Source: a virus
Reading direction: 5' to 3' (one strand)
IMG/VR virus record: IMGVR_UViG_3300033402_000312
Length of the DNA stretch: 64,000 nt
The position numbers and the translations under genes are program-made. Positions within the stretch are counted from its first letter, which is position 1. The number at the start of each line of letters is the position of its first letter. The notes beneath the pieces were generated by a model. The model was not told the DNA's origin, searched no databases, and saw only the letters and a program-made list of their open reading frames with translations. This document shows positions 6,249 to 61,428 of this stretch, piece by piece.

Positions 6249-6613
6249 GCGACTGCGTGAGTATCACGCTGTTCCGCGTGATAATGATCGGCGTTGCGAC
6301 CGGGGCGATCAGCCTGTTCATCACCAAGTCCGCCCTGCTCAACCCGTTCCATGCCTGGCTGGAAAAGCAGTCGCCGTTCCTTGAAGAGATGCTTTCCTGC
6401 CCGTGGTGTACTAGCCACTGGGTCGGCGCGTTCTTCCTGCTGGTGTATCAGCCGTGGCTTCTCGACGGCTGGCGTCCGGCGTGGACGTACGCTAGCTGGC
6501 TCAACCTCCTCCTGACCCCCGTGGATTGGCTCGTGACCCTGATGGTGGTAGTCACCGTCGCGGCAATAACGGCACGGGTCATCTATAGCGCCCACAAGCC
6601 GCTTATGGGGTAA
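6245..6613 (+). CDS. DUF1360-like membrane protein
   Basis: hydrophobic helices, SCPWCTSHW motif typical of DUF1360. Confidence 0.5.
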   Translation: MSDCVSITLFRVIMIGVATGAISLFITKSALLNPFHAWLEKQSPFLEEMLSCPWCTSHWVGAFFLLVYQPWLLDGWRPAWTYASWLNLLLTPVDWLVTLMVVVTVAAITARVIYSAHKPLMG

Positions 6614-6620
6614 TAGACTC

Positions 6621-7733: not shown

Positions 7734-7776
7734 ATAAAAACAGAGCCGAAAAGCCAAAATCCGGCATCAAAGGGTT

Positions 7777-8517
7777 ATGGGCGATCCCGCGAAAACCAAG
7801 GTACAGGTGTTTGTTTGGGACGAGCACGAAGAGCCGCAGGAGCTTCACGGCTCCTCCCTTGAAACGGTCTTTGAGGTTGTGCTGGCCGGTTGGCTCAAAG
7901 TCAAAGAATACGGGAAAGTCCGAAGGGTTTACCCGACCGGGGAGCTTGCCATATACTACCGCGCTTTCACCGACGAGCATCGGGGCCGCCAGATCGTCAG
8001 CGGTGTCAGCCTAGCCGAACTGGACGCCGCCTACCAAGAACGGAAAAAGCAGTGCACCCTGAAGGTTTTCACCCCCGCTGAGCTTTACGCCCTAAAGCCT
8101 GTTCGAATAGACTACGATCCCTGGCTCACGGTTAGCGTGCATCTCTCCGAGGATGTCAGCCACTTTGACCTTGACTTCGACGCTGTCGAGAAAACGCAGC
8201 GCGTGGAAATCCGCACTTTAGCTGACCACGACTACGACGGCAGGCGCGTCTGGACTCTCCAGACAGTCTGGTTTGACAACAAGCCCGTGATGGTGGTAAA
8301 CAGTTCTGGAAGGGACGGCGACGAGTACCATGAGCGCTGGATCACGGATGCCCAGCTTTTCGGGGAGCTTGTGACGTTTCTGAGGACATTCACGCCTCAG
8401 CGGGACGTGGACGGGTTCGTGAAGGCCGATGCGAAAATCCCCGGCATGACCGAGTTCTATAACCATACGATTCATGATTACTACGACGTCGAGGCTCAGA
8501 GGCCTAAAAAACCGTAG
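7777..8517 (+). CDS. hypothetical protein
   Basis: 246-aa ORF. Confidence 0.45.
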   Translation: MGDPAKTKVQVFVWDEHEEPQELHGSSLETVFEVVLAGWLKVKEYGKVRRVYPTGELAIYYRAFTDEHRGRQIVSGVSLAELDAAYQERKKQCTLKVFTPAELYALKPVRIDYDPWLTVSVHLSEDVSHFDLDFDAVEKTQRVEIRTLADHDYDGRRVWTLQTVWFDNKPVMVVNSSGRDGDEYHERWITDAQLFGELVTFLRTFTPQRDVDGFVKADAKIPGMTEFYNHTIHDYYDVEAQRPKKP

Positions 8518-8573
8518 AATCTTGCACCGTTTTGCTGTATGATCGAATCTTGCATGATATAGGAGCATACGAC

Positions 8574-9236
8574 ATGTCCATCAAACAACTGATTCACCAA
8601 GCGAAGAGCCTCGTGGTCGAGGACGATGCGCCGGCCCCGCATGCCGCCGCTCCGACGACCTCGTCGCACCCAGCATTCAACTTGTCTCCGGCGTTTTCAA
8701 CCGGGACGGGCGCGGCGGCGGCCCCGGCCCCTGTCGATTCTCCGTTCTCGGTTCCGAGCACGCCCGTTCTCGACGAAAAGGTCTACAAGTCCGTTCTTGC
8801 CAAGACAAACTTCAACACCACTCCGGTTGGCACGACGATCATCAAATACTACGATGCCCTCGAAGGCATGATCGCCGACCAGAGCGCCCGCTTCAAGGCA
8901 GCCATCAAGCAGGCGCAGAAACTCGACAACATCACTCCCGACCAAGTTCTCGGCGTGTTCGATCAGCTTTCAGCGGCGCTGGACAAAGACGCGGCAAGCT
9001 TTCAGAAAGTCGCAGACAGCGTGCAAGCGACCCAAATCACAGCCCGTCAGACCAAGATCGCCAGCCTCCAGCAGCAAGTTGAGGCTTTCAACAACCAGAT
9101 CAATCAGCTTCAGATGGAGTTGGCATCGGAAACAGCTAACCATGCCAACGCGGTGACGCAGTACGGCTTGGCGCAACAGCGCCGGGCGCAAGAGATCGCG
9201 GCACAGAAAGCGCAAGTCGCCACCCTGCTTCGATGA
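8574..9236 (+). CDS. hypothetical coiled-coil protein
   Basis: AGGAG RBS before ATG 8574; Ala/Pro-rich linker then Q-rich coiled coil. Confidence 0.45.
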   Translation: MSIKQLIHQAKSLVVEDDAPAPHAAAPTTSSHPAFNLSPAFSTGTGAAAAPAPVDSPFSVPSTPVLDEKVYKSVLAKTNFNTTPVGTTIIKYYDALEGMIADQSARFKAAIKQAQKLDNITPDQVLGVFDQLSAALDKDAASFQKVADSVQATQITARQTKIASLQQQVEAFNNQINQLQMELASETANHANAVTQYGLAQQRRAQEIAAQKAQVATLLR

Positions 9237-9288
9237 GGGTTCGAAGGATCAATAAAGATTCAAGTACAAAACTGAAAGGAAAACAGAC

Positions 9289-10410
9289 ATGGCAACAAGC
9301 CCGACTCCGCTGAGTCTCAGCAACTTCTCGCCGAAATCCTTCTGGAAGAAACCGGAAGGCAAGCCCGGAATGATCTTGATGGCGGTCCTCGCGGCTGCCG
9401 GTGCATACGGGCTGTACCTGGCCCTCCCTTTCCTCATCACGCTGGTCGCGAACACGCTTTACCTTGCCCTCCTCGTTGGCGTGCTCGTCGGCATGGTTGC
9501 CCTCGTGATGAACGGCACTGTGCAAACGCTTGCGAAGAACATTTTCCAGTCGCTTTGCCGGGGCGTCGCCACGATATATACCACCATCGACCCTATCGGC
9601 ATCCTGAAGAATCAGCTTGACGACATGCGCAAGGCGAAGGCGGAGCTTGACGGAACCATCCAGCGCTTCGCCGGGTCGGACAACAACCTGAGAACCAACA
9701 TCGCCAAGAAAACCCAAGAGATCATGACGCTTAAGGCGGAAGCGGACGCTGCGCAGAACATGCTCCCCCGTAAGACCGACGATCTGGAAATCGAGCGTAT
9801 CAAGTTGCAGCAGGAGACCTACCTCCAGAAGGCGGGCCTGCTGATGCAGGCTGTCCAGCAGCTTCAGGCGCTCGAAGACCAGACCAAGGACATGCTCGTC
9901 AAGTTCCGCCACTGGTCGCAGGTCTCGGACGCCAAGATCGACCGCACTGCGATGAAGGTGGAAATCTTCGCCGAGCAGCGCAAGATGATCCTTGACGCGA
10001 AGGCAACCCTTGGCATAGGCATGCGCTTGCTGAGGGGCGATTCCGAGCAGCTAAAGCTCGTTGACGGCGCAATCGAGTTCTTGCAGGACGATGCCGCCCA
10101 GACCCTCGGCGAAATCCAAGAATTCAACCGCTTCTCCGACAAGATGCTCACCGACATCGACATTGAAAACAGCGCGAACGCCGAACTGGCCCGCAAGAGG
10201 TTCGCCGACATGGGCACGAAGCTCGAAGCCTCCGCCAACCGCCCAAGCGCCGTTGACCAGCTTCAGGCTGCCCTTGCCGGGGCGAACAGCAGCCCGATCA
10301 GCATCCCAACGACCCCGGTCGTGGGACACGGCGCGGCACGCGGCACTGCGGCTGGCATGAATCCCGGAAGCACGGGCACCAACGATTACAGCGATTTGTT
10401 CAAGGGCTAA
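9289..10410 (+). CDS. membrane-anchored coiled-coil protein
   Basis: two N-terminal TM helices then ~250 aa coiled coil; AAAGGAAAA RBS. Confidence 0.5.
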   Translation: MATSPTPLSLSNFSPKSFWKKPEGKPGMILMAVLAAAGAYGLYLALPFLITLVANTLYLALLVGVLVGMVALVMNGTVQTLAKNIFQSLCRGVATIYTTIDPIGILKNQLDDMRKAKAELDGTIQRFAGSDNNLRTNIAKKTQEIMTLKAEADAAQNMLPRKTDDLEIERIKLQQETYLQKAGLLMQAVQQLQALEDQTKDMLVKFRHWSQVSDAKIDRTAMKVEIFAEQRKMILDAKATLGIGMRLLRGDSEQLKLVDGAIEFLQDDAAQTLGEIQEFNRFSDKMLTDIDIENSANAELARKRFADMGTKLEASANRPSAVDQLQAALAGANSSPISIPTTPVVGHGAARGTAAGMNPGSTGTNDYSDLFKG

Positions 10411-20013: not shown

Positions 20014-20107
20014 GGAGAGATGCCAGAGAGGCTGATCGGGGCGGTTTGCTAAACCGTTGTGGGAGCTAAAACTTCCACCGGGGGTTCGAATCCCCCTCTC
20101 TCCGCCA
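20014..20107 (+). tRNA. tRNA-Ser(GCU), type II, CCA encoded
   Basis: acceptor ggagaga/tctctcc, T-arm ggggg-ttcgaat-ccccc, anticodon loop ttGCTaa, long variable arm. Confidence 0.75.
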
Positions 20108-20108
20108 C

Positions 20109-20200
20109 GGAAGGGTTGGTACATTGGCAGGTCCGGCTGTCTCGAAAACAGTTACGGGGCGCAAGCTCCGTTGCCCGTTCGACTCGGGTCCCTTCCTCCA
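20109..20200 (+). tRNA. tRNA-Ser(CGA), type II, CCA encoded
   Basis: acceptor ggaaggg/cccttcc, T-arm gcccg-ttcgact-cgggt, loop ctCGAaa. Confidence 0.65.
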
Positions 20201-20345
20201 AGTTTAGATCGCAGCGGTGTTGGATACAGTTACTTCGGATAAACACAACCGGCGCGAGCCGGGCGTGCAAGTCTGGGTTCGAATCCCAGCGACCGGGCGC
20301 AAGCCCGGTGTCAACTGTGCCGCTTGTTCCCTGCGATTCAGTTTT

Positions 20346-20435
20346 GGAGAGTTGGCCGAGTGGACGATGGCGCTCGCTTGGAAAGCGAGTATCCTCGAAA
20401 GGGGGTCGCGAGTTCGAATCCCGCACTCTCCGCCA
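20346..20435 (+). tRNA. tRNA-Ser(GGA), type II, CCA encoded
   Basis: acceptor ggagagt/actctcc, loop ttGGAaa, disc G. Confidence 0.7.
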
Positions 20436-20436
20436 G

Positions 20437-20528
20437 GGCGAGGTTGGTACATGGGCAGGTCCGGCGCTCCCGAAAAGCGTTACGGGGCTGACGCTCCGTT
20501 GCAGGTTCAACTCCTGTCCTCGCCGCCA
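20437..20528 (+). tRNA. type II tRNA, Ser(CGA)-like with C33
   Basis: acceptor ggcgagg/cctcgcc, T-arm gcagg-ttcaact-cctgt, loop ccCGAaa (C at position 33). Confidence 0.5.
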
Positions 20529-20533
20529 AATTT

Positions 20534-20619
20534 GGAAGGTACTGCCGAATGGTTGGCAACTAGCCTTGAAAGCTAGGGCGTCCGAAAGGACGGGCGTTCG
20601 ATTCGTCTATCTTCCGCCA
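20534..20619 (+). tRNA. tRNA-Ser(UGA), type II, CCA encoded
   Basis: acceptor ggaaggt/atcttcc, D-stem tgcc/ggca, anticodon stem ctagc/gctag loop ctTGAaa. Confidence 0.7.
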
Positions 20620-20646
20620 AATTTCAGGTATTAGCCGTAGTAATTC

Positions 20647-20735
20647 GCGGGAGCAGCCCGATTGGCCGGAGGCGGCGGACTTAAAATCCGTTGGGAGCAA
20701 TCCCTTTGTGAGTTCGACTCTCACCTCCCGCACCA
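20647..20735 (+). tRNA. tRNA-Leu(UAA), type II, CCA encoded
   Basis: acceptor gcgggag/ctcccgc, disc A, loop ctTAAaa, T-arm gtgag-ttcgact-ctcac. Confidence 0.7.
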
Positions 20736-20740
20736 AATTC

Positions 20741-20829
20741 GCTGGTGTCCGTTGGCACGGGGAACCGTTTTATAAACGGTTGCCCTAGATCGGGGCTTCC
20801 ATAGGGTTCGATTCCCTACACCAGCACCA
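20741..20829 (+). tRNA. type II tRNA with anticodon UAU (unusual; Ile(UAU)-like or noncanonical)
   Basis: acceptor gctggtg/caccagc, disc A, anticodon stem accgt/acggt loop ttTATaa, 21-nt variable region, T-arm taggg-ttcgatt-cccta. Confidence 0.5.
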
Positions 20830-39814: not shown

Positions 39815-39890
39815 AGGGGATTGGTCTAGCGGCTACGATGCGCGTCTCCAAAACGCTGCGACGGGGGTTCGAGTCCCTCATCCCCTGCCA
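39815..39890 (+). tRNA. tRNA-Trp(CCA), CCA encoded
   Basis: acceptor aggggat/atcccct, loop ctCCAaa, T-arm gggggttcgagtccctc. Confidence 0.7.
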
Positions 39891-39912
39891 AGTTTTTGAA
39901 GGGAAGGAAGTT

Positions 39913-40543
39913 ATGGAACTGAGGTCAGGGGCTTCTCAAGCGCGAGGTACCCGCATCCTGCGGGGGGAGACGGCTGCCCGGAGGCGTCTTCATCTCGTCT
40001 AGCCTTGCGCAGAGGGCGACGGAAGCCGGGTACGAGGAGTTCGTCCTTCCGTCGCTTGAGCTTGCCGCCATGTACGCGGAGAAGGCGGGGGATGAGGTTC
40101 TGGGGCAGATGTACACGTTCCCGGACAAGAAGGGCAGGCTGCTGTGCCTGCGACCGGAGGGGACGGCGACGTGCCAGGTGCTCGCCGACACGGCGCTGAA
40201 GTCGGAGCGGGACGTGAGGCTCTGGTACCTGGCGACCTGCTGGCGCTACGAGCGGCCGCAAGCCGGGCGCTACCGGGAGTTCTTGCAGTTCGGCGTGGAG
40301 GTCCTGAACCCGCGCCGGGGCGTGCGGGACGAGCTTGTGGCGCTGGCCGAAGGCATGGTCGGAATGTTCACCGACCGCTATGAGGTGAGCAGGGCTGTGA
40401 AGCGCGGGCTGGCGTACTACGTCGAGGACGGCTTCGAGATAAGCTGCCCGCAGCTTGGCGCTCAGAAGCAGGTCTGCGGCGGCGGGTCGTACAAGCAGGG
40501 ATGCGGCTTCGCGCTCGGCGTGGATCGGCTGATGCTGGTTTGA
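39913..40543 (+). pseudogene. hisS-like (histidyl-tRNA synthetase class II core) remnant, frameshifted and internally shortened
   Basis: N-term fragment MELRS..RGTRILRGETAA stops at 40002; second frame carries motif 1 LRPEGTA, motif 2 CWRYERPQAGRYREFLQFGVE, motif 3 CGGGSYKQGCGFALGVDRL; insertion and anticodon-binding domains absent. Confidence 0.45.
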
Positions 40544-40570
40544 GTTTCATGCCGTAGTGCATGACACTAC

Positions 40571-40644
40571 GGTGGGCGTAGTTCAGTTGGGAGAACGCCC
40601 GGCTGTGAACCGGGAGGTCGCGGGTTCGAACCCCGCCGCTCACC
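40571..40644 (+). tRNA. tRNA-His(GUG) with genomically encoded G-1, no encoded CCA
   Basis: G-1 pairs with discriminator C73; acceptor gtgggcg/cgctcac; loop ctGTGaa; T-arm gcggg-ttcgaac-cccgc. Confidence 0.75.
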
Positions 40645-40689
40645 CTTTCGTGACTTCCTGAGTATTAAGTAGAGTGCTCAGGAAGGTTC

Positions 40690-41517
40690 ATGATGCTTTA
40701 CACCGTGTACAAGACGGTGAATTTGACGAACGGCAAGTACTACTTCGGCGTCCATAAAACGGACGACCCGGATGACGACTACCTCGGTTCTGGGGTATAC
40801 ATCAAGCGAGCCGTTGCAAAGTACGGGGAACAGAACTTCCGCAAGGAAGTGTTGTTCATTTATCTTGATGCGGAGTCGGCGTTTAAGAAAGAAGACGAGT
40901 TAATCCAGTGTTATCGAGGCAGGGACCCGTTGTGCATGAATCTAAAGAATGGAGGGAGAGGTGGCTATGACTGGATCAATAAAAACGGGTTAAATGGTGC
41001 GAAAGTTGCGCATCTCCCAAATGTAGAGCAACAGCGGCGACGGACATTCGGTAAAAGACTTAAGACCGACGAAAATTTTCGACGTCAAGTTGCCGAACGA
41101 GCAAAGCACGCGGCGCAATTTGTAAAAAATGAGAGCCGCTTGGAATCATTAAAGCAGGCGACAATCGCAGCAGCGAACGCAAATACGGGCAGAAAACGCT
41201 CCTCGGAATTCAAGCATAAGATTTCTGCCGCGCAGCGAGGGGGTAGGTGGGTACACCAAGGAAGAAATAAACGTCGAGTTGTCCAAGAAGATTTGCCAAG
41301 ATTTTTGAAAGAGGGCTGGCTGTTTGGACAAAAAGACAAGCCGTCGCTTAAGACCCGAAAATTAAGTAAAGCTCAAACAGCTTTCGCGGGGACACGTTGG
41401 TGCTGGGGGCATAAAGATTTTTTACCTCTTAACGCTTTTGATGGCGCAAATCGGTTGTGTAGGCTTTGCAGGAAAAAGCGGCGAGTTTTACGCCGCCAAG
41501 AGTTGGGACATTGGTAA
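40690..41517 (+). CDS. GIY-YIG homing endonuclease
   Basis: N-term YTVYKTVNLTNGKYYFGVHKT...YLGSG GIY-YIG motif; lower GC than flanks; sits between tRNA genes. Confidence 0.7.
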   Translation: MMLYTVYKTVNLTNGKYYFGVHKTDDPDDDYLGSGVYIKRAVAKYGEQNFRKEVLFIYLDAESAFKKEDELIQCYRGRDPLCMNLKNGGRGGYDWINKNGLNGAKVAHLPNVEQQRRRTFGKRLKTDENFRRQVAERAKHAAQFVKNESRLESLKQATIAAANANTGRKRSSEFKHKISAAQRGGRWVHQGRNKRRVVQEDLPRFLKEGWLFGQKDKPSLKTRKLSKAQTAFAGTRWCWGHKDFLPLNAFDGANRLCRLCRKKRRVLRRQELGHW

Positions 41518-41527
41518 TTTGATATAG

Positions 41528-41604
41528 GCGCGTGTAGCTCAGTTGGACAGAGCGCTACTCTGCGAAGGTAGAGGTCGCTGGTTCGAATCCAGTCACGCGC
41601 ACCA
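41528..41604 (+). tRNA. tRNA-Arg(GCG), CCA encoded
   Basis: acceptor gcgcgtg/cacgcgc, D-arm gctcagttggacagagc, loop ctGCGaa. Confidence 0.65.
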
Positions 41605-41611
41605 AGAGATT

Positions 41612-41689
41612 GCGCCTGTAGCTCAGTTGGACTAGAGCGTTCGCCTCCGAAGCGAAAGGCCGCGAGTTCGAGTCTCGCCAGGCGCACCA
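41612..41689 (+). tRNA. tRNA-Arg(CCG), CCA encoded
   Basis: acceptor gcgcctg/caggcgc, anticodon stem ttcgc/gcgaa loop ctCCGaa. Confidence 0.7.
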
Positions 41690-41859
41690 AGTTCGAGAGC
41701 AGTCCCGGCGCTGGCCGTGCGCAGCACGGATCAACGCCGCCGATGATTGGGGTCTGGTGCCCGAACCATCTGTGATACTCAACCGGACTAGGCGCGTTGC
41801 CGCTGGCCCAAAGTGGACGTCCACGGAAGGAGTCACGTGAGAGAGGGCTGCCTGAGTTT

Positions 41860-41937
41860 GCCGGGTTAGCTATTGGACATGGCAGCACGTCTTCGAAACG
41901 TGCAATTTAGCGGGTCCGAATCCCGCACCCGGTTCCA
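41860..41937 (+). tRNA. tRNA-Arg(UCG), CCA encoded (6-bp anticodon stem)
   Basis: acceptor gccgggt/acccggt, anticodon stem gcacgt/acgtgc loop ctTCGaa, T-arm gcgggtccgaatcccgc. Confidence 0.55.
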
Positions 41938-41943
41938 AGATTT

Positions 41944-42020
41944 GCCCCCGTAGCTCAGCGGAACAGAGCGGCACGCTACGAACGTGAAGGTCGGCGGTTC
42001 AAATCCGTCCGGGGGCACCA
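41944..42020 (+). tRNA. tRNA-Arg(ACG), CCA encoded
   Basis: acceptor gcccccg/cgggggc, loop ctACGaa. Confidence 0.7.
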
Positions 42021-42179
42021 AGGTTAGTACGAACATCAAGCCTGATTAAAGACGGTTGCTTTGAACGAGTAAAAAAGGAAGTAGTAAAGTGTGATGTGCG
42101 ATGTGCTAACTGTCACAGACGCCGCACTGCAAAGCAACAAAAACATTTTTGGCTAGAATTTTTAGCAACGAAAGTTTGA

Positions 42180-42255
42180 TGGGGTGTGGTCCAATCGGTA
42201 GGACGCTCGGCTGTTAACCGAGACGGTGTGGGTTCGAATCCCACTGCCCCAGCCA
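42180..42255 (+). tRNA. tRNA-Asn(GUU), CCA encoded
   Basis: acceptor tggggtg/tgcccca (U1), D-stem gtcc/ggac, anticodon stem ctcgg/ccgag loop ctGTTaa. Confidence 0.65.
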
Positions 42256-42362
42256 GCTTATGAAGTGGATTGCCCAAGCCCTGCTGAAGCGGATCGGCGC
42301 GTATCTGAATAACAAGCGCGGATTGACTTGGGCCGAGGCGAAGAGGTGGTATATCGTCATCA

Positions 42363-42381
42363 CCCCCCTTGCGGGGGTTTT
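42363..42381 (+). terminator. putative intrinsic terminator
   Basis: cccccc-ttgc-ggggg followed by tttt. Confidence 0.45.
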
Positions 42382-42422
42382 GAGGAAGGGAGCAAAGGCG
42401 TAAATTTGCAGAAGAGTTCTGA

Positions 42423-42497
42423 TCCTCGGTAGCTCAATGGCGGAGCAGGCGGCTGTTAACCGCAAGGTTGCAGGTTCAAGTCCTGCCCGAGGAGCCA
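42423..42497 (+). tRNA. tRNA-Asn(GUU), CCA encoded
   Basis: acceptor tcctcgg/ccgagga (E. coli-like U1), loop ctGTTaa. Confidence 0.7.
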
Positions 42498-42502
42498 AGT
42501 TT

Positions 42503-42577
42503 GGGTCTGTAATTCAGCGGCTAGAAGCCCTCGCTCTTAACGAGGTAACGAGAGTTCGAGTCTCTCCAGACCCACCA
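42503..42577 (+). tRNA. tRNA-Lys(CUU), CCA encoded
   Basis: acceptor gggtctg/cagaccc, anticodon stem cctcg/cgagg loop ctCTTaa. Confidence 0.7.
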
Positions 42578-42594
42578 AGTTTTTGTGATACCAT

Positions 42595-42671
42595 GGGCCG
42601 CTAGCTCAATTGGTTAGAGCAACTGCCTCTTAAGCAGAAGGTTCCCGGTTCGAGTCCGGGGCGGCTCACCA
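42595..42671 (+). tRNA. tRNA-Lys(CUU), CCA encoded
   Basis: acceptor gggccgc/gcggctc, D-arm gctcaattggttagagc, loop ctCTTaa. Confidence 0.7.
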
Positions 42672-42686
42672 AGATCGGAGAGGAAG

Positions 42687-42857
42687 ATGCTGAAGCCCAA
42701 CGGTGATTTTGATTTAGACGGAAAGCCGGTCATGCCCGATGTGGTTGTCGCCGGACTCATCCCCAACGAGGAGGGGCAAAACGATGTCGAGGTCGAACCT
42801 GCCGGGGTCGAACCCGACGATGACGACCTCTTCGTGGACTACGGCGGCGAGGGATGA
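42687..42857 (+). CDS. hypothetical small acidic protein (56 aa)
   Basis: GGAGAGGAAG RBS then ATG 42687; not in ORF track (below 60 aa). Confidence 0.35.
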   Translation: MLKPNGDFDLDGKPVMPDVVVAGLIPNEEGQNDVEVEPAGVEPDDDDLFVDYGGEG

Positions 42858-42901
42858 CAAGTTTTTGGGTATTAGGATTCTTAGGATAGGAGGTCGAAGA
42901 C

Positions 42902-43447
42902 GTGCCTGACGTACTGATTCTCGACATGAACTACCGCCCTGTCGGTTTCGCATCGTGGCAGGACGCGGTCAAGAACATCTGGAAGGACCGGGCTGTCGTC
43001 ATCAAGGAAGACGAGGACGGCAAGATGCTCCATTCCCCGTCCTTCGAGATGGGCATGCCGAGGGTGATCCGCGTCCGCAACGCGTGGGTGAAGCGGCGCA
43101 AGACCTCCGTCCCGTTCTCGCGGCGCAACCTTTACGTCCGCGACAGCGGCGAGTGCCAGTACTGCGGCAGGCACCTCAAGCTGGACGAGTACACGCTCGA
43201 CCACGTGGTGCCGCGCTCGCAGGGCGGTATCTCGTCCTGGGCGAACATGGTCCTGTCCTGCATGCGCTGCAACAAGCGCAAGGCGGGTCAGACGCCGGAG
43301 CAGGCAGGGATGCCTCTCTTGCAGAGGCCAATCGTCCCGAAGGTGGACGATCCGAAATATAATTTCAAATTGCACATTCGGAAGCTCCGCCCCGAGTGGA
43401 AGGAATGGGAGAACTTCCTGTACTGGAACATCGAGTTGGATAAATAG
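42902..43447 (+). CDS. HNH endonuclease
   Basis: CQYCGRHL...LDHVVPRSQGG...SCMRCNKRK. Confidence 0.75.
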   Translation: MPDVLILDMNYRPVGFASWQDAVKNIWKDRAVVIKEDEDGKMLHSPSFEMGMPRVIRVRNAWVKRRKTSVPFSRRNLYVRDSGECQYCGRHLKLDEYTLDHVVPRSQGGISSWANMVLSCMRCNKRKAGQTPEQAGMPLLQRPIVPKVDDPKYNFKLHIRKLRPEWKEWENFLYWNIELDK

Positions 43448-43494
43448 GTAGACAAGCCTCGGGGAGGACGATAACCTCCCCGAGCAAAGATTGC

Positions 43495-43572
43495 GGCCCC
43501 GTAGCTCAGCGGAACAAGAGTAGCGGTTTCCTAAACCGAAGGTCGTGCGTTCGAATCGCACCGGGGCTACCA
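43495..43572 (+). tRNA. tRNA-Arg(CCU), CCA encoded
   Basis: acceptor ggccccg/cggggct, loop ttCCTaa, T-arm gtgcg-ttcgaat-cgcac. Confidence 0.65.
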
Positions 43573-43577
43573 AAATT

Positions 43578-43775
43578 ATGATGTCAGCCGACATTTTCGT
43601 CTGGAAGTGCATCGTCTGCGGGCATAGGGTCATGACGCAGATGGACCTCCATGTCAACGACCGGCCGATCTGCGTGGAGTGCAATGCGGAGATGGAGCCA
43701 GTGAGGAAAGACCCCGAACTCGGGGAGCGCATCATGAGGATATGGGAGCGGCTGGTTCCCGGCGCACAGATTTGA
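43578..43775 (+). CDS. hypothetical zinc-ribbon protein
   Basis: CIVCGH...CVECN. Confidence 0.35.
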   Translation: MMSADIFVWKCIVCGHRVMTQMDLHVNDRPICVECNAEMEPVRKDPELGERIMRIWERLVPGAQI

Positions 43776-43779
43776 CTTT

Positions 43780-43854
43780 TGGGAGATCGTACAATCGGTA
43801 GTACACAGGTCTCTGGAACCTGTTATGGCGGTCCGAGTCCACCTCTCCCAGCCA
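43780..43854 (+). tRNA. tRNA-Gln(CUG), CCA encoded
   Basis: acceptor tgggaga/tctccca (U1-A72, disc G as in E. coli Gln), anticodon stem caggt/acctg loop ctCTGga. Confidence 0.65.
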
Positions 43855-43899
43855 AGCTTTCGGAACAGCCATGTGACTCTGGTGTTGAGCGGCGACAGC

Positions 43900-44079
43900 A
43901 TGAGCGGGTGCAAGAAGCACGGTCCCGGCGTTTGGCGCAGCGACTGCGAAGAGTGCCGCACGGCCCCGGTGCCGCAGCACGAAACCGATGTGATCCTGAC
44001 ACCGTCCTACTGCAACGGCTGCAAGTATGGCAGCCATTGCTTGGGCGCTGACCCGGACTGCGCATGCGGCTGCGAATAA
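43900..44079 (+). CDS. hypothetical Cys-rich protein
   Basis: MSGCKKHGPG...CEEC...CNGCKYGSHC...CACGC; start approximate. Confidence 0.3.
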   Translation: MSGCKKHGPGVWRSDCEECRTAPVPQHETDVILTPSYCNGCKYGSHCLGADPDCACGCE

Positions 44080-44109
44080 AGCTAGACAACGCCACGAAGT
44101 TGCGGTAGA

Positions 44110-44292
44110 ATGGGAGAGATGAACTCTCCGCTGAAGACGATCCTGAAGGTCACGGCTGCGGCGCTTGTACCGGGCATAGCGATCTACTTGCTGGCGAGCA
44201 TGATCCTGAGGGAGAACGAGAAGAAGGAATTCAAGAGGTATATCTACAACACCTACGGAGAGGGCAGCAAGTATGTTGACACCTACTATTGA
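44110..44292 (+). CDS. hypothetical small membrane protein
   Basis: single TM helix. Confidence 0.35.
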   Translation: MGEMNSPLKTILKVTAAALVPGIAIYLLASMILRENEKKEFKRYIYNTYGEGSKYVDTYY

Positions 44293-44389
44293 TTACAGCG
44301 CTCTTGCGACGATGGCGCTCGGCGTCTGCGCCCTCTGCCTCTGCCTTGCCTACCCTGCGCCACGAAGAAAACGCTGACCACATCCCTGC

Positions 44390-44465
44390 GGGCCGTTACG
44401 TCAACGGCTAGACTACTCGCCTTTTAAGCGATGGAATCTCGGTCCAAATCCGAGGCGGCCCACCA
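44390..44465 (+). tRNA. tRNA-Lys(UUU), CCA encoded
   Basis: acceptor gggccgt/gcggccc, loop ctTTTaa, T-arm ctcgg-tccaaat-ccgag. Confidence 0.65.
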
Positions 44466-44470
44466 AATTT

Positions 44471-44547
44471 GCCCCCGTCGTCCAACGGAATAAGGACACT
44501 GGCCTTCTAAGCCATGGATGCGGGTTCGATTCCTGCCGGGGGTACCA
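44471..44547 (+). tRNA. tRNA-Arg(UCU), CCA encoded
   Basis: acceptor gcccccg/cgggggt, D-stem gtcc/ggac, loop ctTCTaa. Confidence 0.65.
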
Positions 44548-44553
44548 ATTTTT

Positions 44554-44629
44554 GGGAGGTTAACTCAATCGGTAGAGTGCCCGGCCTTTAACCGGAACGT
44601 TGTGGGTTCGACTCCCATGCCTCCCACCA
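44554..44629 (+). tRNA. tRNA-Lys(UUU)-like with C33
   Basis: acceptor gggaggt/gcctccc, D-arm actcaatcggtagagt, anticodon loop ccTTTaa (C33), T-arm gtgggttcgactcccat. Confidence 0.5.
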
Positions 44630-44681: not shown

Positions 44682-45293
44682 ATGATAAACAAAGAACAAT
44701 TAGAACAAGCGATTTCCGATGGCTTAAGTAGCTACGGCATCGCTCGAAAATTCAATGTTGGTCAAACTGCTGCTCGGTATTGGTTGAAGCGATGGTCTCT
44801 TAAGACCCAACACAAGGCTAAACGCACAGGAAAACCACGACAGTTTAATCCATGTGTTGTTTGTGGGACGCCCACAAAAAACAAGAGGGTATGTGGGTTG
44901 AAGTGCAATGGTATTTTGACAACCGCCACAACACAAAAAAGATGGCAGAAAAGAAATTGCCAAGAACTAGCTAGCTGGAAACAGGGAAAATTTCAGCCGT
45001 CTGAATTTCGTTGCAAAGCAATTTTAGTTTTTGAACGGGGCAAAAAGTGTGAGATTTGCGGCTGGGCGGAGGTAAATCCCTATACGGATCGAATCCCAAT
45101 CGAGCTTGAGCATAAGGATGGGGACTGCTACAACAACAAGTACGAAAACCTGTCGCTTTTATGCCCAAACCATCAAAGCCTGACCGCAACTTACCGGGGA
45201 GCAAATGCCCGTAGGGGACGAGGACGCAAGATGTACAAAGTTGTGAGCCAATGGGCAAAAGAAAAAGGCATCGGCATTACAACCGGGACCTAA
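44682..45293 (+). CDS. HNH homing endonuclease with N-terminal HTH
   Basis: low-GC gene; ELEHKDGDCYNNKYENLSLLCPNHQ HNH motif; CVVCG...CGLKC. Confidence 0.65.
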   Translation: MINKEQLEQAISDGLSSYGIARKFNVGQTAARYWLKRWSLKTQHKAKRTGKPRQFNPCVVCGTPTKNKRVCGLKCNGILTTATTQKRWQKRNCQELASWKQGKFQPSEFRCKAILVFERGKKCEICGWAEVNPYTDRIPIELEHKDGDCYNNKYENLSLLCPNHQSLTATYRGANARRGRGRKMYKVVSQWAKEKGIGITTGT

Positions 45294-45754: not shown

Positions 45755-46582
45755 TCAAGGTTTCTGCCGGTTCGCCTTGTCCATGTCCGACTTCGAAAGC
45801 TGGTTGAACCCGCTGACGGACGCCAGGTCGGCTTTCAGTTGGGCGATGTTGAAGCCCTTGGGCTGCCAGGCCGCGCCGAGCAGAGTGTGGGACTCGTCGG
45901 TGTACTTGTCCCAGAACGCCACGGTCATCTTCTGGAGCATGCCCCACGTGATGCAGGTGACGGTCGTCGCGCCGTTTGCCGTGGGGTCTTTGACGTGGTA
46001 CGCCGGGCAGTAAACCGCGTGCCCGCCCGCGATCCCGCCGTCGTCCGGCACCACGTCCCAAACCTGGCCGTTCTGGTTCTGGGTGAGCGCCGAGTTGGGA
46101 AGCTGGAGACCGATGTAGACGCCGCCGAACTCCGCGATGGACTGCATGACGTGCCCGAAGTTCTGGGGCTGCGGGCTGACGTAGGCTTCGAGCACGTGCC
46201 CGCCGAACGTCTGCTGGTACCAGTCCGTGAGGACGGTGGTCTCGATGCCGCCTTGGTCGGTGCTCTCGTCGCCGAGGACGTAGCCGCACCACTTCTCGTA
46301 CTTAGCGAGGATGAGGCTGTCGGGAGGGGTGGTCGCGTCCTTCGTCCAGACCTGCACGGCGTGCCCGCAGGCGGCGATGGTGCAGTCGCCGAGGCCCTCG
46401 GAAGGGACTCCGGCAGGGGCATCCGAGTCGGGGCCGTTCAGCATCATGCCCCAGTCCGTGACGCCGTACGTGTACTGGGCGTAGGGCGGCGGGGTGTAGC
46501 CTTCCAACACGTAGTCCTTCATGTGCGGCGTCTGGGGGCTGAACAGAGCCTGCTTCTTGCCTAGCCTGTACTTGAATTGCAT
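45755..46582 (-). CDS. hypothetical protein (only minus-strand gene; possible Cys/His peptidase-like)
   Basis: GGAGGTAA RBS on minus strand before MQFKY start; GDCTIAACGHAV and GGHAVY motifs. Confidence 0.5.
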   Translation of the reverse strand: MQFKYRLGKKQALFSPQTPHMKDYVLEGYTPPPYAQYTYGVTDWGMMLNGPDSDAPAGVPSEGLGDCTIAACGHAVQVWTKDATTPPDSLILAKYEKWCGYVLGDESTDQGGIETTVLTDWYQQTFGGHVLEAYVSPQPQNFGHVMQSIAEFGGVYIGLQLPNSALTQNQNGQVWDVVPDDGGIAGGHAVYCPAYHVKDPTANGATTVTCITWGMLQKMTVAFWDKYTDESHTLLGAAWQPKGFNIAQLKADLASVSGFNQLSKSDMDKANRQKP

Positions 46583-46868
46583 GCGGGTTACCTCCACATA
46601 AGGTTCGGGTAGCGGGAAACAGGGGCAACCCCTTGAAAATCCTTGATAAACTGCGTCAAATCATGGTATTTCATGGTGAAATGGTACGCCCGCGAACCAC
46701 AAGCTCCCATATTTTCCCCGGATAGTTCGCGCTGTGATGCAAGTTTTTACGCACCTTGACTTTATGGAAGGAGCGGCTTGATTCGCAATAGCAAAACGAT
46801 GGCGAGGCTGGTGATTTCGCGAAAGGCGACCTCTGGACTATTTATTTGTAATGAGTTACGATATAGCT

Positions 46869-47554
46869 GTCGCGCCCCCGCACGGGCGCGTGGGTTGAAA
46901 CTATGATAATAATACCAAAAGACAGGAATGTTGTCGTCGCGCCCCGCACGGGCGCGTGGGTTGAAACAACGAGATGGTCATGCGTGCGCTGCGCAAGGCA
47001 GATCGCGCCCCGTACAGGTGGGTTGAAACAGGAAAATTGCGACATGGCTAACTTTATGTGTGTGGGTTGAAACATCAACGGCGGTCGAACCATCGTGGTT
47101 GTCACCCCTCATTAAGGTGTGGGTTGAAATAAAATAGGAAGAGGGCTGTTCGTTTCATGACCACGTCTTAACGCCCCTTAATTGGGGCGTGGGTTGAAAC
47201 GCCGCATCTCTAGCAGCTTTGTTTTGGCTATCATCCCACAAGGGACATGGGTTGAAACGACCGTGTGGCTCGGAGTACCAATCAATTGTTGGTTGGGTTG
47301 AAACATTCTTAATTCTTGTTTTAGCTTCTTGCTTCACCCAGTGTTGAACTGGGTGTGGGTTGAAACCTTGTTGAAGCAGCGGACCGCGACCTTCTTGCTG
47401 TGTCACCCAGCGTTGAGTGGGTTGAAACGCGCCCATCGAGGGCACACCGTCGATCTCATGAGTGCCGCCCAGCGTTGAACTGGGTGTGGGTTGAAACACA
47501 CCAGCTTCCGTGATGGAACGTCGTAAAGTAGTATCAGTTTGATTGGATTGAAAC
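46869..47554 (+). CRISPR. degenerate 12-unit CRISPR-like array, type I-C-like repeats, no adjacent cas genes
   Basis: repeat 1 gtcgcgcccccgcacgggcgcgtgggttgaaac (46869-46901), then 46936-46967, 47001-47029; later units keep the 3' tgggttgaaac but carry different hairpins (acgcccc..ggggcgt; cacccagcgttgaactgggtg); ends at 46901, 46967, 47029, 47073, 47130, 47200, 47258, 47304, 47366, 47428, 47497, 47554; AT-rich leader upstream. Confidence 0.6.
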
Positions 47555-47590: not shown

Positions 47591-48052
47591 ATGAGAAAAA
47601 TCCTATTTTCCTTGGTTTTCAGCCTTCTCCTTTTCGCTGTCCCGATCCCGGCATCTGCCCAGCATGGGCACGGCGGCGGGCGCAGCAGCGGCCATAGCTT
47701 CGCCGGGCACGCCCCGAGCGGGTATGCCGCCCCGTACGCGGCCCCGAACCGAGGCTACAACAGAGGCGAGGCGTACGCCCATTTCTCCAACGGCCGCTTC
47801 GACCGCAGCTACTTCGCCGCCCATTGGGGCTACGGGCACCCCTTCTACTTGGGCAACTGCTACTGGTGGGGGCCGCGCTTCTACGTCGGCTCCTACTTCT
47901 GGTACGGCGGCGCGTACTTCCTGATCATCGACCCGATCCCGTACGACTGGTGGTACGACGACGTCTACGTGGAGTGGGTTGACGGCTACGGCTACGTGCT
48001 TGCCGACCCGGTCTATCCTGGCGTTTATTTCCATATCGGCGTCCGCTTCTGA
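47591..48052 (+). CDS. secreted Gly/Tyr/Trp-rich protein
   Basis: signal peptide MRKILFSLVFSLLLFAVPIPASA; aromatic/Gly-rich low-complexity body. Confidence 0.5.
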   Translation: MRKILFSLVFSLLLFAVPIPASAQHGHGGGRSSGHSFAGHAPSGYAAPYAAPNRGYNRGEAYAHFSNGRFDRSYFAAHWGYGHPFYLGNCYWWGPRFYVGSYFWYGGAYFLIIDPIPYDWWYDDVYVEWVDGYGYVLADPVYPGVYFHIGVRF

Positions 48053-49130: not shown

Positions 49131-49631
49131 ATGGGCTTCAGCAGAAACGCTTATCGGGAAAATAGACGGAATAAAGGACTTTGTAGAGATTGTGGGGAGA
49201 AAGCACGTAAAGGTCTATCTCTATGTGAGGCGTGCGCAAAGTCCGCTTATAAACGAAATGTAAAGCGTTCTGCTAACTTTAAGAAAAGGGGGGTCTGCAT
49301 AACGTGCGGGCGAAAAGTCGTAAAAGGCAAGGCACGTTGCGCACAACACCTACTTTATACCCGTATTTGCAATTTGCACCTGCCGCGCAAAGAAAGACCA
49401 CGTGTTGCTGCGGCACTCCGTGAGTTTGCTGGATACTGTGAATGTTGCGGCAGAAGCAAACCTGGTGGAAACAACCAGTGGAATATCGACCACAAAGGGT
49501 CAAAATTTCGTGGTATATTATGTTGGTACTGTAATATTGTACTTGGGCTTGTTTACGACAATACAGCAACACTGAAGGCGATGATCAAATACCTCCGAAA
49601 AACACGGCAGGGGAGGAAGGACAAGCCATAA
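49131..49631 (+). CDS. endonuclease VII-like HNH nuclease
   Basis: low-GC gene; CRDCGEK...CEAC...NIDHKGSKFRGILCWYCNIVLG pattern. Confidence 0.6.
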   Translation: MGFSRNAYRENRRNKGLCRDCGEKARKGLSLCEACAKSAYKRNVKRSANFKKRGVCITCGRKVVKGKARCAQHLLYTRICNLHLPRKERPRVAAALREFAGYCECCGRSKPGGNNQWNIDHKGSKFRGILCWYCNIVLGLVYDNTATLKAMIKYLRKTRQGRKDKP

Positions 49632-52059: not shown

Positions 52060-53400
52060 GATCACCTCCCCCCTAATCTAATGTGTTTGTGAAGCGGTTG
52101 CTCCCGTGAATCGAGGTCGCTGCTGACTGCTGAAGGTTCATGCAAAGTTCCTCCTTCGGGATTAAGGATGGACTGAGTATTTAGTTTGTGGCGGCGAACT
52201 CTGCCGCATCTATCTAAGAGGAGCATAGCGGAGAAATCGGCGCTGCCTTGCAAAGCTCTAGGGGGCTATGCAAGGCAGCCCACGATAAGACTCACCAAAC
52301 TAGATATGAGCAAGCTTACAGATTTAGCTGGACAAAGATTCGGGCGTTTGACCGTTCTCCACCGGGCGGGGAAAGAGTACCCCGTTCGTTGGGCCGTGGG
52401 ATGTGACTGTGGTACAGAAAAGACTGTTTCGCGCCGTAGGTTACTGGATGGGTCAGTCAAAAGCTGCGGATGTTTGCGCCGAGAGCTTACTGTAGCGCGA
52501 AACAAAAAAAGGACTAAACCATTTGAACTCGTAGCTAGAAAAAACGTTCTTTGCCACTACATCCAAAACGCCAGCGCAAGAGGGCTTGAGTGGGGGCTTT
52601 CGGAAAAGCATTTTTATACCTTAATACAAAAACCGTGTTTCTGGTGCGGCGCTCTGCCTGCAAATCAATGCAAAATTTCCTACCGGAAGGGGGTTTTTAT
52701 ATATCAAGGTGTTGATCGTCTAGATAATCGTTTTGGGTATTCTGAGACTAATGCAGTTCCCTGTTGTTACCTTTGCAATGATATGAAAAGTTCCACGTCG
52801 GCGCACGACTTCAAGCATCAAGTAGAAAAAATATCGCATAATCTGAAAGGACATCAATGGCCGACGACCTCTTGAAACGTGTATTTGGCATGTTAGATGA
52901 CAAAATCAGAATTTACCAAGTCATGGAAGACCGTGAGGTTTTTCGTGATGAATTTGTCTATTGTCAAATCATGTTCCAAATCCTCTTTGGTGATAAAGGG
53001 TTTGCCAAGACGTTGGGGCCAACTTGGAATCTTATACATGATCCTCGCTTTCGAGTGCTAGAAAATATGATGGTCACTGATCGCCATGCAATCTTCGGCG
53101 GGGATGCGCGTATTGGAAAACAATATATTAACGATGACGGTTCATTTTCAAGCTCTGTTGGAGACCTTGAAAAATACGCTGAGTTGTTGGGTGAGGGAAG
53201 AAACTTTCACAATGTCTTAACGCATCCAAATCAAGCATGTCCAGTACGCAAGTGGTTGGAACGCATCTATACCGGGCATACTCAGATAGTCCCAAACAAT
53301 GAACTCAATTGCGTTTGTTTGAGCAAGGAAAAAATTGACCCAACTACTTTCAAAGATCAATCTGATGAAGTAGTGTGGCGTTATATTCTTCAGGAGTGCC
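52060..53400 (+). other. low-GC (~42-45%) compositional island spanning a homing-endonuclease-like gene and the N-terminal third of the downstream 525-aa ORF
   Basis: abrupt AT-rich composition versus ~60% GC flanks. Confidence 0.6.
52306..52875 (+). CDS. putative homing-endonuclease-associated DNA-binding protein (LTGQRFGRLTV-type)
   Basis: low GC; N-term LAGQRFGRLTVL, CDCG...SCGC Cys pairs, C-term CCYLCN; family assignment tentative. Confidence 0.4.
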   Translation: MSKLTDLAGQRFGRLTVLHRAGKEYPVRWAVGCDCGTEKTVSRRRLLDGSVKSCGCLRRELTVARNKKRTKPFELVARKNVLCHYIQNASARGLEWGLSEKHFYTLIQKPCFWCGALPANQCKISYRKGVFIYQGVDRLDNRFGYSETNAVPCCYLCNDMKSSTSAHDFKHQVEKISHNLKGHQWPTTS

Positions 53401-60181: not shown

Positions 60182-60340
60182 ACGGAATAGGGGCACCTTC
60201 CCTTCTTCGCAGAGAGGAAATGCCCTTGTAGCCGGGAAGCTTGAGGCGGGCTGTTTCGGGAAGACCACATTCTCTAAATGCCTGACAAGGGTTTCCCGGC
60301 TTTGTTTCCTACAAGTCGTTGATTATTGGGCACATAAAAC

Positions 60341-60370
60341 TGGACATTTGGCGCATCCAATCTGTATACT
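60341..60370 (+). promoter_or_regulatory. conserved promoter motif TGGACA-N18-TATACT
   Basis: tggaca 60341-60346; tgTATACT ending 60370; upstream cacataaaa box shared with the 18237 copy. Confidence 0.55.
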
Positions 60371-60390
60371 ACGGATGGAGGAAAAGAGGC

Positions 60391-61428
60391 ATGGCAAAAG
60401 CAAAGAAAAGCACCCACACCAGCGGTATCCCGAAGGGCTTCGATTCGCACGGCTCCGGCTCCGTGGGCGAACCCGCGAAGCAGAATCCCACCGACGTCGC
60501 CGCGAAGCTGGCGGACATGCTGAAACAGTCGGCTGCGCAAGAACACGGCGACGTGAACGTTGACACCAATGTCCCGGTGAAGAAGATCGCTGGCGGCAAG
60601 GCGACGTGGGCAGGTGTCATGGAACTGCCAAACGGCAGCGGCGGCGTCCTCGCGAAGTTTGCGGTCAAGACCTGCAAAGCCGTTGACACCGAAAAGTTTG
60701 AGCGGCACATGTACCACAGCGCTGAATGCAAGCACCGCGCCGAGCGCGGCGACATGGTCTGCTCCGGCTGCGGAGCGAAGGGGCTAAACGAGTACAACGT
60801 CGTGAAGGGCGTCGAGTTGGACGGCGAAGTCATCCTGATCTCCGACGAAGAACTGGCTGCGCTCGTCCCGCAAAACGAAAAGACGATGCGCATCACCGAG
60901 TTTGTGGACGGCACCGAGATCGACCCGATCTACCTCGAAGAAACCGAATTCCTGTACCCCCAAGAAGAGAAGAAGAGCAAGGCTGCGCAGTTGACGTTCG
61001 CCGTCCTCGGCGACACGCTCCGTGGCACCGGGAAAGTCGCGAAGGGCGTGCGCGTGAAGCGCGGCAAAGAGCAATACTTCGTCGTCCGCCCCTACGGGGC
61101 GAACGGTCTGACCATCAACATGCTTCACGCCGAGTACGAAGTACGCGACGCTTCCAGCCTGTGGCTCGCGGTTGAAGCTCCGCGCGAAATGGTCGAAATG
61201 ATGATGGCTCTCATCGAGACGCCGGAACTGACCAAGCCGTTCACCCCGGCGAAGCGCGACCAGTACCTAGCGAACGCGAACAAGCTGGTCGCCGACAAGC
61301 GGGCCGGCATCAAGACCGAGTGCCCGACCCCCGAGCCGGAGCAGAAGGGCACGGACAATTTGCTGGAGAAGCTCATGGCGGCGGTTGCGACAAACGCAGC
61401 GGCGAAAGCTGCCAAGGCTGGCAAGTAA
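60391..61428 (+). CDS. ku: Ku-like DNA end-binding protein
   Basis: KATWAGVMELPNGSGGVLAKFAVKT and ISDEELAALVPQNEKTMRITEFVDGTEIDPIYLEETEFLYP resemble bacterial Ku core. Confidence 0.55.
   Translation: MAKAKKSTHTSGIPKGFDSHGSGSVGEPAKQNPTDVAAKLADMLKQSAAQEHGDVNVDTNVPVKKIAGGKATWAGVMELPNGSGGVLAKFAVKTCKAVDTEKFERHMYHSAECKHRAERGDMVCSGCGAKGLNEYNVVKGVELDGEVILISDEELAALVPQNEKTMRITEFVDGTEIDPIYLEETEFLYPQEEKKSKAAQLTFAVLGDTLRGTGKVAKGVRVKRGKEQYFVVRPYGANGLTINMLHAEYEVRDASSLWLAVEAPREMVEMMMALIETPELTKPFTPAKRDQYLANANKLVADKRAGIKTECPTPEPEQKGTDNLLEKLMAAVATNAAAKAAKAGK

Follow-up and report, generated by a model that had tools for sequence, protein, structure and literature searches.

What would a very large phage gain from a CRISPR array that has no cas genes, has lost most of its repeat hairpins and has kept the 3' end of every repeat? 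The question is raised by positions 46869-47554 (plus strand) of IMG/VR virus record IMGVR_UViG_3300033402_000312, of which a stretch of 64,000 nucleotides (nt), hereafter the window, was analysed. Twelve units stand in a row there, each with the 11-nt handle TGGGTTGAAAC at its 3' end. The 21-nt hairpin part is replaced or deleted in 10 of the 12, and the handle is lost in none. We tentatively interpret the locus as an array-format, handle-based RNA anti-CRISPR that would compete through the type I-C Cas proteins of the host, a reading we put somewhat short of an even chance.

The handle is confined to this stretch. At one mismatch or fewer, TGGGTTGAAAC has 12 matches, all on the plus strand between 46891 and 47554, against 0.92 expected by chance, and none of 100 shuffles reaches 12; there is no further match in the 64-kb window on either strand. 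Ten handles are exact, one carries a final T and the terminal one reads TGGATTGAAAC, which makes 2 changes in 132 positions. Handle-to-handle distances are 66, 62, 44, 57, 70, 58, 46, 62, 62, 69 and 57 nt. A covariance model trained on 30 I-C repeats, all from loci other than the window, returns exactly the same 12 units as its 12 top window matches. The second unit scores 56.6 bits and the first 47.5 bits; the remaining ten reach 14-22 bits, essentially what the handle alone contributes. The units (u1 to u12) and the first three spacer-like segments (S1 to S3) are as follows.

46869-46901 (plus strand): u1, full repeat, 33 nt long owing to an additional loop C; stem of 7 bp directly against the handle.
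46902-46935 (plus strand): S1, 34 nt, 27% GC.
46936-46967 (plus strand): u2, canonical 32-nt repeat GTCGCGCCCCGCACGGGCGCGTGGGTTGAAAC.
46968-47002 (plus strand): S2, 35 nt.
47003-47029 (plus strand): u3, 3' arm of the hairpin deleted, handle intact; 17 bits.
47030-47062 (plus strand): S3, 33 nt.
47063-47073 (plus strand): u4, handle alone directly 3' of S3, hairpin part absent; 16.3 bits.
47101-47130 (plus strand): u5, 4-bp stem CACC/GGTG plus handle TGGGTTGAAAT; 20.4 bits.
47171-47200 (plus strand): u6, new stem of 6-7 bp, (A)CGCCCC-TTAATT-GGGGCG(T), abutting the handle; -15.2 kcal/mol, 21.6 bits.
47234-47258 (plus strand): u7, 4-bp stem TCCC/GGGA, 2 nt off the handle; 14.4 bits.
47277-47304 (plus strand): u8, 6-bp stem ACCAAT/GTTGGT abutting the handle; -7.9 kcal/mol; overlaps a would-be 35-nt S7.
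47335-47366 (plus strand): u9, 32 nt, new stem of 7-8 bp, CACCCAG(T)/(A)CTGGGTG, abutting the handle; -15.8 kcal/mol.
47404-47428 (plus strand): u10, unit of the u9/u11 type with a deletion of the 3' arm, handle intact.
47466-47497 (plus strand): u11, 7-bp stem CGCCCAG/CTGGGTG with one G-U pair, abutting the handle; -10.8 kcal/mol.
47533-47554 (plus strand): u12, terminal unit, handle TGGATTGAAAC behind a 4-bp stem; the next gene starts (ATG) 36 nt further on.

Type I-C repeats are defined as about 32 nt long, with a 2-nt overhang, a 7-bp stem, a 5-nt loop and an 11-nt 3' overhang (PMC8524198). Only u1 and u2 have this form, with loops of 5-6 nt and u1 equal to u2 plus one extra C, and the other ten units individually depart from it. 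Their hairpin parts are partly deleted (u3, u10), absent (u4) or reduced to a 4-bp stem (u5, u12 and also u7, where the stem is displaced by 2 nt). A fourth class, comprising u6, u8, u9 and u11, has a different stem of 6-8 bp that ends exactly at the cleavage site; in u9 its arms are CACCCAGT and ACTGGGTG. Relative to the canonical stem, the stem positions of these units are altered on both sides. At a fixed position in the window, a stem of 6 bp or more (loop of 3-9 nt) has a probability of 0.025, and such a stem stands at the cut site in 4 of the 10 degenerate units, or in 3 independent ones should u9 and u11 be duplicates. As isolated sequences, u1, u2, u6, u9 and u11 form hairpins of -10.8 to -15.8 kcal/mol (-15.7 kcal/mol for u1) and leave the handle single-stranded.

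The original prediction, made from the sequence and its open reading frame (ORF) list, had described twelve handle-sharing units with irregular spacing of 44-70 nt, and the match count, the covariance model and the measured distances agree with it. It had called the first three units canonical, which is right for u1 and u2 but not for u3, a unit without its 3' arm. Self-complementarity of the later stems, also claimed, is found in u6, u8, u9 and u11 and weakly in u5 and u12; it is missing in u3, u4 and u10 and displaced in u7. The unit length of 44 to 70 nt reflects deleted or replaced hairpin parts around inferred spacers of 29-41 nt, compared with the I-C norm of about 33-37 nt between uniform repeats.

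Other kinds of repeat fit less well. A coding repeat was ruled out because the spacings do not keep to multiples of three and the reverse-complemented motif falls in three frames of spurious minus-strand ORFs. Iterons or another DNA-level repeat are not favoured, as u1, u2 and the sequence before them are unmistakably I-C. Rfam yields no family at E <0.5 on the array, the sole weak match being CRISPR-DR9 on u9 (E 0.56). In the independent JGI, ENA and Logan assemblies, contigs begin or finish inside S9 (47371-47405), between the near-identical u9 and u11, a hint that this part of the array is heterogeneous in the population or subject to repeat-mediated deletion.

The type I-C identity of the array is indicated by both its repeat and its leader. 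When 30 of the 32 nt of u2 were searched as an exact string against 185,579 species-representative genomes, a single locus matched, on a contig (JAAYAC010000120.1) of a Syntrophomonadaceae metagenome-assembled genome (MAG). Eight copies of the full 32-nt u2 repeat, in the form GTCGCGCCCC...TGGGTTGAAAC, directly follow ORFs for Cas8c (a C-terminal fragment), Cas7c, Cas4, Cas1c and Cas2 (NCBIfam) on this contig. An exact 24-nt stretch of the repeat has no match in IMG/VR. A similar repeat is found in the classical I-C locus of Nitratidesulfovibrio vulgaris pDVUL01, which is ordered cas3-cas5c-cas8c-cas7c-cas4-cas1c-cas2, leader and array, with the array in the same orientation as in the window. 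Directly before u1 lies the following element.

46691-46868 (plus strand): I-C-style leader with CGCGAACC at 46691-46698, GTTCGCG at 46725-46731 and TTCGCGAAA at 46816-46824, then AT-rich up to u1.

In an alignment with two leaders from cas-linked I-C arrays (the MAG contig and locus L011), this leader shows the same motifs in the same order, and the motifs are common to the window, the MAG contig and pDVUL01. In the cas-linked loci, CGCGAACC ... GTTCGCG sits right after the cas2 stop codon, and in these loci as in the window TTCGCG(G)AA lies about 45 nt 5' of the first repeat. The leader stands 5' of u1 in the orientation in which the repeats end in ...TTGAAAC, again as in cas-linked I-C loci. 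The phage therefore carries the whole post-cas2 part of an I-C locus, and we take 46691-47554 to be a bacterial type I-C leader with its array.

The cas genes themselves are missing. A tblastn search of the seven pDVUL01 Cas proteins against the 64-kb window finds nothing below E 0.01, and Cas profile hidden Markov models (12-37 homologues each) find nothing at E <= 10 among all stop-to-stop ORFs of at least 40 amino acids (aa). The cas-free stretch covers 47 kb upstream and 16 kb downstream of the array, which is thus an orphan within the window, and any Cas5c or Cascade would have to come in trans. The surrounding DNA is that of a phage. It encodes an rIIA-like protein (PHROG E 8e-99), a phrog_10079 protein (8e-104), HNH and endonuclease VII proteins and 22 tRNAs in two clusters (20014-20829 and 39815-44629), and it has relatives in IMG/VR. 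The original prediction of an orphan, degenerate array of type I-C within a phage-like genome, with a leader-like region before the first unit and no cas genes nearby, is thus sustained: the leader is real and carries I-C motifs, and the lack of cas genes extends to the entire window. That prediction would have lost its footing had the repeats matched no I-C family; the repeat is identical to that of the cas-linked array of the MAG.

How unusual is it for the handle to outlast the hairpin? A metagenome scan with GGGCGCGTGGGTTGAAAC returned at least 120 loci, from which 82 arrays with the same handle and about 2,300 units served for comparison; a hairpin was counted as lost when the hairpin part was <70% identical to the array consensus. 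Among the matches listed, units with the handle kept and the hairpin lost make up 0.6-0.75%, with at most 2 per array. Searching from either half of the repeat gives, again among listed matches, 17 such units versus 12 of the reverse class (hairpin kept, handle lost), and the per-site mismatch of the two repeat halves in the ordinary arrays listed is 0.64% vs 0.51%. The window array has 10 of 12 units in the first class and 0 in the reverse class. This asymmetry is far outside the normal decay of I-C arrays, and the predicted conservation of the handle during divergence of the hairpin is hence stronger than ordinary arrays would lead one to expect. Several of the handle-lost units in ordinary arrays look like trailer-end repeats (L044, L054, L065, L133 and the last pDVUL01 repeat), an array-end position that was verified for pDVUL01 alone. 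The terminal u12 retains a valid I-C handle, unlike the last pDVUL01 repeat, which keeps its hairpin and has lost its handle. Small degenerate arrays that contain hairpin-deleted, handle-kept units at low frequency do exist (L021, L098 and L124).

The conserved part of the units is the part read by Cas5c, the I-C subunit that processes the RNA and nucleates Cascade. Its recognition centres on the cut site together with U22-G23-G24, the nucleotides just downstream in the 5' handle; changes to the loop or the 5' overhang are tolerated, and within Cascade the protein remains on the 5' handle (PMC8524198). The simplest reading is accordingly one of selection, in which the handles, and in roughly half the units also a stem at the cut site, would have been kept for recognition by Cas5c or Cascade. 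Under the mechanism we favour, a huge phage captured the leader and array of a bacterial I-C locus without the cas genes. A plus-strand transcript starting from the leader would carry 12 copies of the 11-nt I-C 5' handle and would act in trans as a ligand of host Cas5c or Cascade, with a cleavable substrate at probably five or six units. The resulting phage RNAs, similar to CRISPR RNAs (crRNAs), could then occupy the host I-C Cas proteins and compete with the host crRNAs for loading, thereby inhibiting the system. The intact R1-S1-R2 portion (u1, S1 and u2) may additionally act as a true guide.

We lean towards competition, or a decoy, over guiding, but only weakly. The lean comes from handles that are intact where no mature crRNA is possible (u3, u4, u7, u10 and the terminal u12), from S8 and S9, which look remodelled, from an array that is invariant in six contigs, and from the failure to find a spacer target. 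It stays weak because the spacer lengths and GC contents look real, R1-S1-R2 is a textbook mini-array and most spacers remain unmatched anyway. S8 and S9 share the 9-mer CTTCTTGCT just 5' of their hairpins and S8 is internally repetitive, which suggests that they have been remodelled rather than conserved as guides.

Several observations weigh against a handle-based anti-CRISPR. The spacer-like segments have the normal lengths (29-41 nt) and the mixed GC contents (27-64%) of real acquired spacers, and a full leader and two pristine repeats exceed what a decoy needs. No sigma-70-like promoter was found on the plus strand of the leader. No anti-CRISPR protein gene was recognised near the array; Pfam and PHROG assign no function to the ORFs beside it. 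The only exact repeat match lies in a contig of 45% GC, compared with about 58% for the phage, and the MAG concerned is at most a possible host. All 6 contigs that carry the array are 100% identical, so that constraint within the phage is not measurable; selection on the handle, inferred from the within-array comparison alone, may have acted in a previous bacterial carrier. In the RNA anti-CRISPR RacrIF1 the inhibitory part is the hairpin and not the handle (PMC10651486), which makes the analogy indirect. Finally, the genome may reach several hundred kb, and a phage-encoded Cascade could lie beyond the 64 kb.

Known RNA anti-CRISPRs (Racrs) are among the closest parallels. They include the experimentally validated RacrIC1, which inhibits a type I-C system, and like the window array they are phage-encoded repeat mimics that could bind the processing nuclease and compete with crRNAs (PMC10651486). 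They differ in being solitary, often beside acr genes, and in the active hairpin of RacrIF1, whereas the window holds an array with a leader and conserves the handle. The SRUFinder program discards repeats within 100 bp of one another as arrays (PMC10651486), and a Racr by definition was ruled out for the window, where 12 units lie 44-70 nt apart behind a leader. The original prediction stands in its descriptive part; as to the two functions it named, a crRNA mimic or a phage-borne mini-array with guides, the locus does not fit the solitary Racr definition, and no spacer target speaks for guides. A possible variant, though less likely than not, is a multi-copy "Cas5c sponge" specific to type I-C, where Cas5c attends to the cut site and the 5' handle and not to the hairpin. 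A dozen-handle transcript from the captured array would then jam the I-C system, with no constraint left on hairpins and spacers. By cutting at u12, 36 nt before the ATG, Cas5c might also make expression of the downstream operon depend on an active host I-C system.

Among the alternatives to the handle-based anti-CRISPR, a guide array survives best and is a possible, though less probable, explanation. Genuine crRNAs would then be used by host I-C Cascade and Cas3 against competing phages or plasmids, providing superinfection exclusion, a role proposed for viral mini-arrays and for the cas-less arrays of huge phages (PMC7162821, PMC11656645). In appearance R1-S1-R2 is indistinguishable from a viral mini-array: it is a one-spacer unit in a virus, with host-type repeats identical to those of the cas-linked MAG array. 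The complete leader and the lengths and heterogeneous GC of the spacers also suit guides. Viral mini-arrays, however, have 1-2 spacers that mostly target related viruses (PMC11656645), and the window has 11-12 units and no detected target. The cas-less arrays of huge phages (PMC7162821) are likewise compact, lie in very large, tRNA-rich phages, have host-like repeats and lack acquisition or interference genes nearby. That paper describes no arrays with decayed hairpins and retained handles, and the window differs further in having no detected spacer target. A phage-borne cas-less array is in this sense of a known kind, while conservation of the handle alone over 12 units is not described in the cited papers.

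The target searches do not favour guiding. The proposal that the spacers target competing elements found no support in blastn searches of the phage and plasmid databases INPHARED and PLSDB, which gave no target. Exact patterns of S1, S2, S8 and S11, with every sixth base free, have no match in IMG/VR. With blastn-short, the spacers were compared with the window, related phage loci and 742 kb of I-C loci, and the best match is 16 nt long and flanked by GCG instead of the TTC protospacer-adjacent motif (PAM). In a search of the phage with 2,158 spacers from the at least 120 metagenome I-C loci, the best matches are 18/34 to 24/35 and lack a TTC PAM, which is chance level. The spacers of any array mostly have no database match, and absence from databases is weak evidence. 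The units themselves also speak against guides: four have no hairpin at the cut site, which should keep the spacers on either side from maturing, and still retain an intact handle, and the terminal unit has a handle with no spacer behind it. To this are added the remodelled look of S8 and S9 and the identity of the array in all 6 contigs that carry it, which gives no sign of spacer turnover.

A passenger relic is less probable again and, in our view, unlikely. On this account the phage carries a decaying host array and leader without function, and the architecture comes from the donor or from hairpin-specific deletion and templated mutation. The genes on either side of the array bear on it.

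45755-46597 (minus strand): divergent upstream neighbour, 275-280 aa, phrog_19005.
47591-48052 (plus strand): downstream neighbour P0001, 153 aa, with a hydrophobic, signal-peptide-like N-terminus judged from the translation.

Both genes have relatives in IMG/VR or on phage-like metagenome contigs. Six IMG/VR loci with relatives of the upstream gene (up to 75% identity) have no array beside it, and four contigs with a 67%-identical homologue of the downstream gene have none either, the gene there adjoining a tRNA cluster. The array is consequently a lineage-specific insertion, since related phages are without it at this site. That history, the lack of cas genes and of targets, and the rare hairpin-deleted, handle-kept units of bacterial arrays would all suit a relic. 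Neutral decay, however, should alter the handle as it does the hairpin, and 2 of 132 handle positions are changed while the hairpin parts are largely unalignable. None of the ordinary arrays listed has more than 2 handle-kept, hairpin-lost units. The new stems moreover reach right up to the cut site with their length preserved, and the last unit retains its handle, whereas several of the handle-lost units of ordinary arrays look trailer-end.

It is improbable, more so than a relic, that the array serves a type I-C variant effector encoded elsewhere in the phage genome. Huge phages with I-C variant systems are known, with Cas5d-like, Cas7 and Cas8 genes and a helicase that replaces Cas3 (PMC7162821). 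Room for such genes exists, as 64 kb was seen and the exact P0001 protein is found on contigs of up to 894,233 bp. A comparable case is the 527-kb viral contig IMGVR_UViG_3300005613_000001 (L142). Its array has 17 units (8307-9390, minus strand) with the repeat CTAACAATCGTCATTTGATATGGCG+TGGGTTGAAAC, that is, the same handle behind a short non-canonical 5-bp hairpin, CGTCA/TGGCG, that abuts it. Several of its units are 5'-deleted, and a 735-aa Cas3-like helicase (6081-8288) follows immediately downstream of the array. The window differs from this contig, where the helicase is adjacent and the units are otherwise uniform, and the two phages are unrelated. Against an effector of the phage's own stand the lack of any cas gene within 47 kb upstream and 16 kb downstream, by tblastn and by profile, and a repeat and leader of the ordinary bacterial I-C type, the repeat being identical to that of the MAG.

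Least credible is Cracr-like regulation, in which spacers partially matching host cas or creT promoters would let Cascade repress its own expression: the degenerate psi-repeats in a phage array do resemble Cracr arrays, nine two-spacer examples of type I-C among them (bioRxiv 10.1101/2024.10.29.618823), but these arrays are defined by that partial match (at least 9 PAM-proximal bases), which was not found for the window; they have 2-3 spacers against 11-12 units here; and no spacer has a PAM-flanked seed match above chance in the 742 kb of I-C loci, cas operons included, a weak test because the true host locus is not among them. A two-repeat unit that looks like a Cracr or a mini-array was seen on another IMG/VR contig (L139, 90 kb, 7628-7697 in array orientation), with stems GCGCCC/GGGCGC and GCACCC/GGGTGC, which differ from each other in both arms, around a short spacer of 28 nt.

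Compared with the bacterial I-C (Dvulg) arrays of pDVUL01 in N. vulgaris DP4 and of JAAYAC010000120.1, the window array has the same 32-nt repeat geometry, orientation and leader motifs. It differs in that cas genes are adjacent in the bacterial loci and missing here, in the loss of 10 of 12 hairpin parts and in the kept terminal handle. Phage arrays, Racrs and Cracrs all illustrate that viruses reuse parts of CRISPR RNA, and this locus signals internally which part matters. Its twelve units are of different age, with a handle that is essentially invariant and a hairpin that has been replaced, rebuilt or deleted, a pattern that fits the recognition mode of Cas5c. If the RNA engages host I-C complexes, the array would amount to an experiment of nature that pins down the minimal recognition element of Cas5c or Cascade, and it would extend RNA anti-CRISPR mimicry from solitary hairpins to arrays of handles. 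Even as a mere relic, it documents the capture of a complete leader and array by a huge phage.

The surroundings of the array offer further observations. In the 36 nt between the last handle and the ATG of P0001 there is no terminator-like site, and the P0001 gene is possibly co-transcribed with the array. The sole sigma-70-like site of the region lies on the minus strand at 46937-46909 (ACGACA-17-TATTAT with TG), inside R2/S1, and faces the divergent gene of up to 280 aa; about 1.2 such sites are expected by chance. In three relatives (L013-L015), a cluster of 16 tRNAs stands in opposite orientation beside the homologue of the 153-aa gene. The 894,233-bp contig with P0001 would, if it is a single phage genome, exceed the largest phage genome on record in PMC7162821, which measures 735 kb. 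Three genes for HNH or endonuclease VII-type nucleases lie <8 kb from the array (44682-45293, 49131-49631 and 52186-52875), perhaps as homing endonucleases and as markers of a region prone to recombination.

Elsewhere in the window, the tRNA set includes five tRNA-Ser, six tRNA-Arg and one tRNA-Ile(TAT). A 157-aa ORF in the tRNA region (40070-40543) matches histidyl-tRNA synthetase families and may be a fragment or a regulatory paralogue. Further genes encode an AAA ATPase, a Ku-like protein (60319-61428) and an ATP-dependent DNA ligase (6621-7733), and the last two suggest a phage-encoded end-joining pair. An 810-aa protein encoded at 30843-33275 has the shoulder and repeat domains of the major vault protein (E 4e-25 and 7e-10), which is unusual for a phage, and has no PHROG match. 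Close by, at 30127-30261, a tandem repeat of period 18 with 7.8 copies of CCGTTCCCGGAGCCAGAC lies inside the ORF at 29710-30288.

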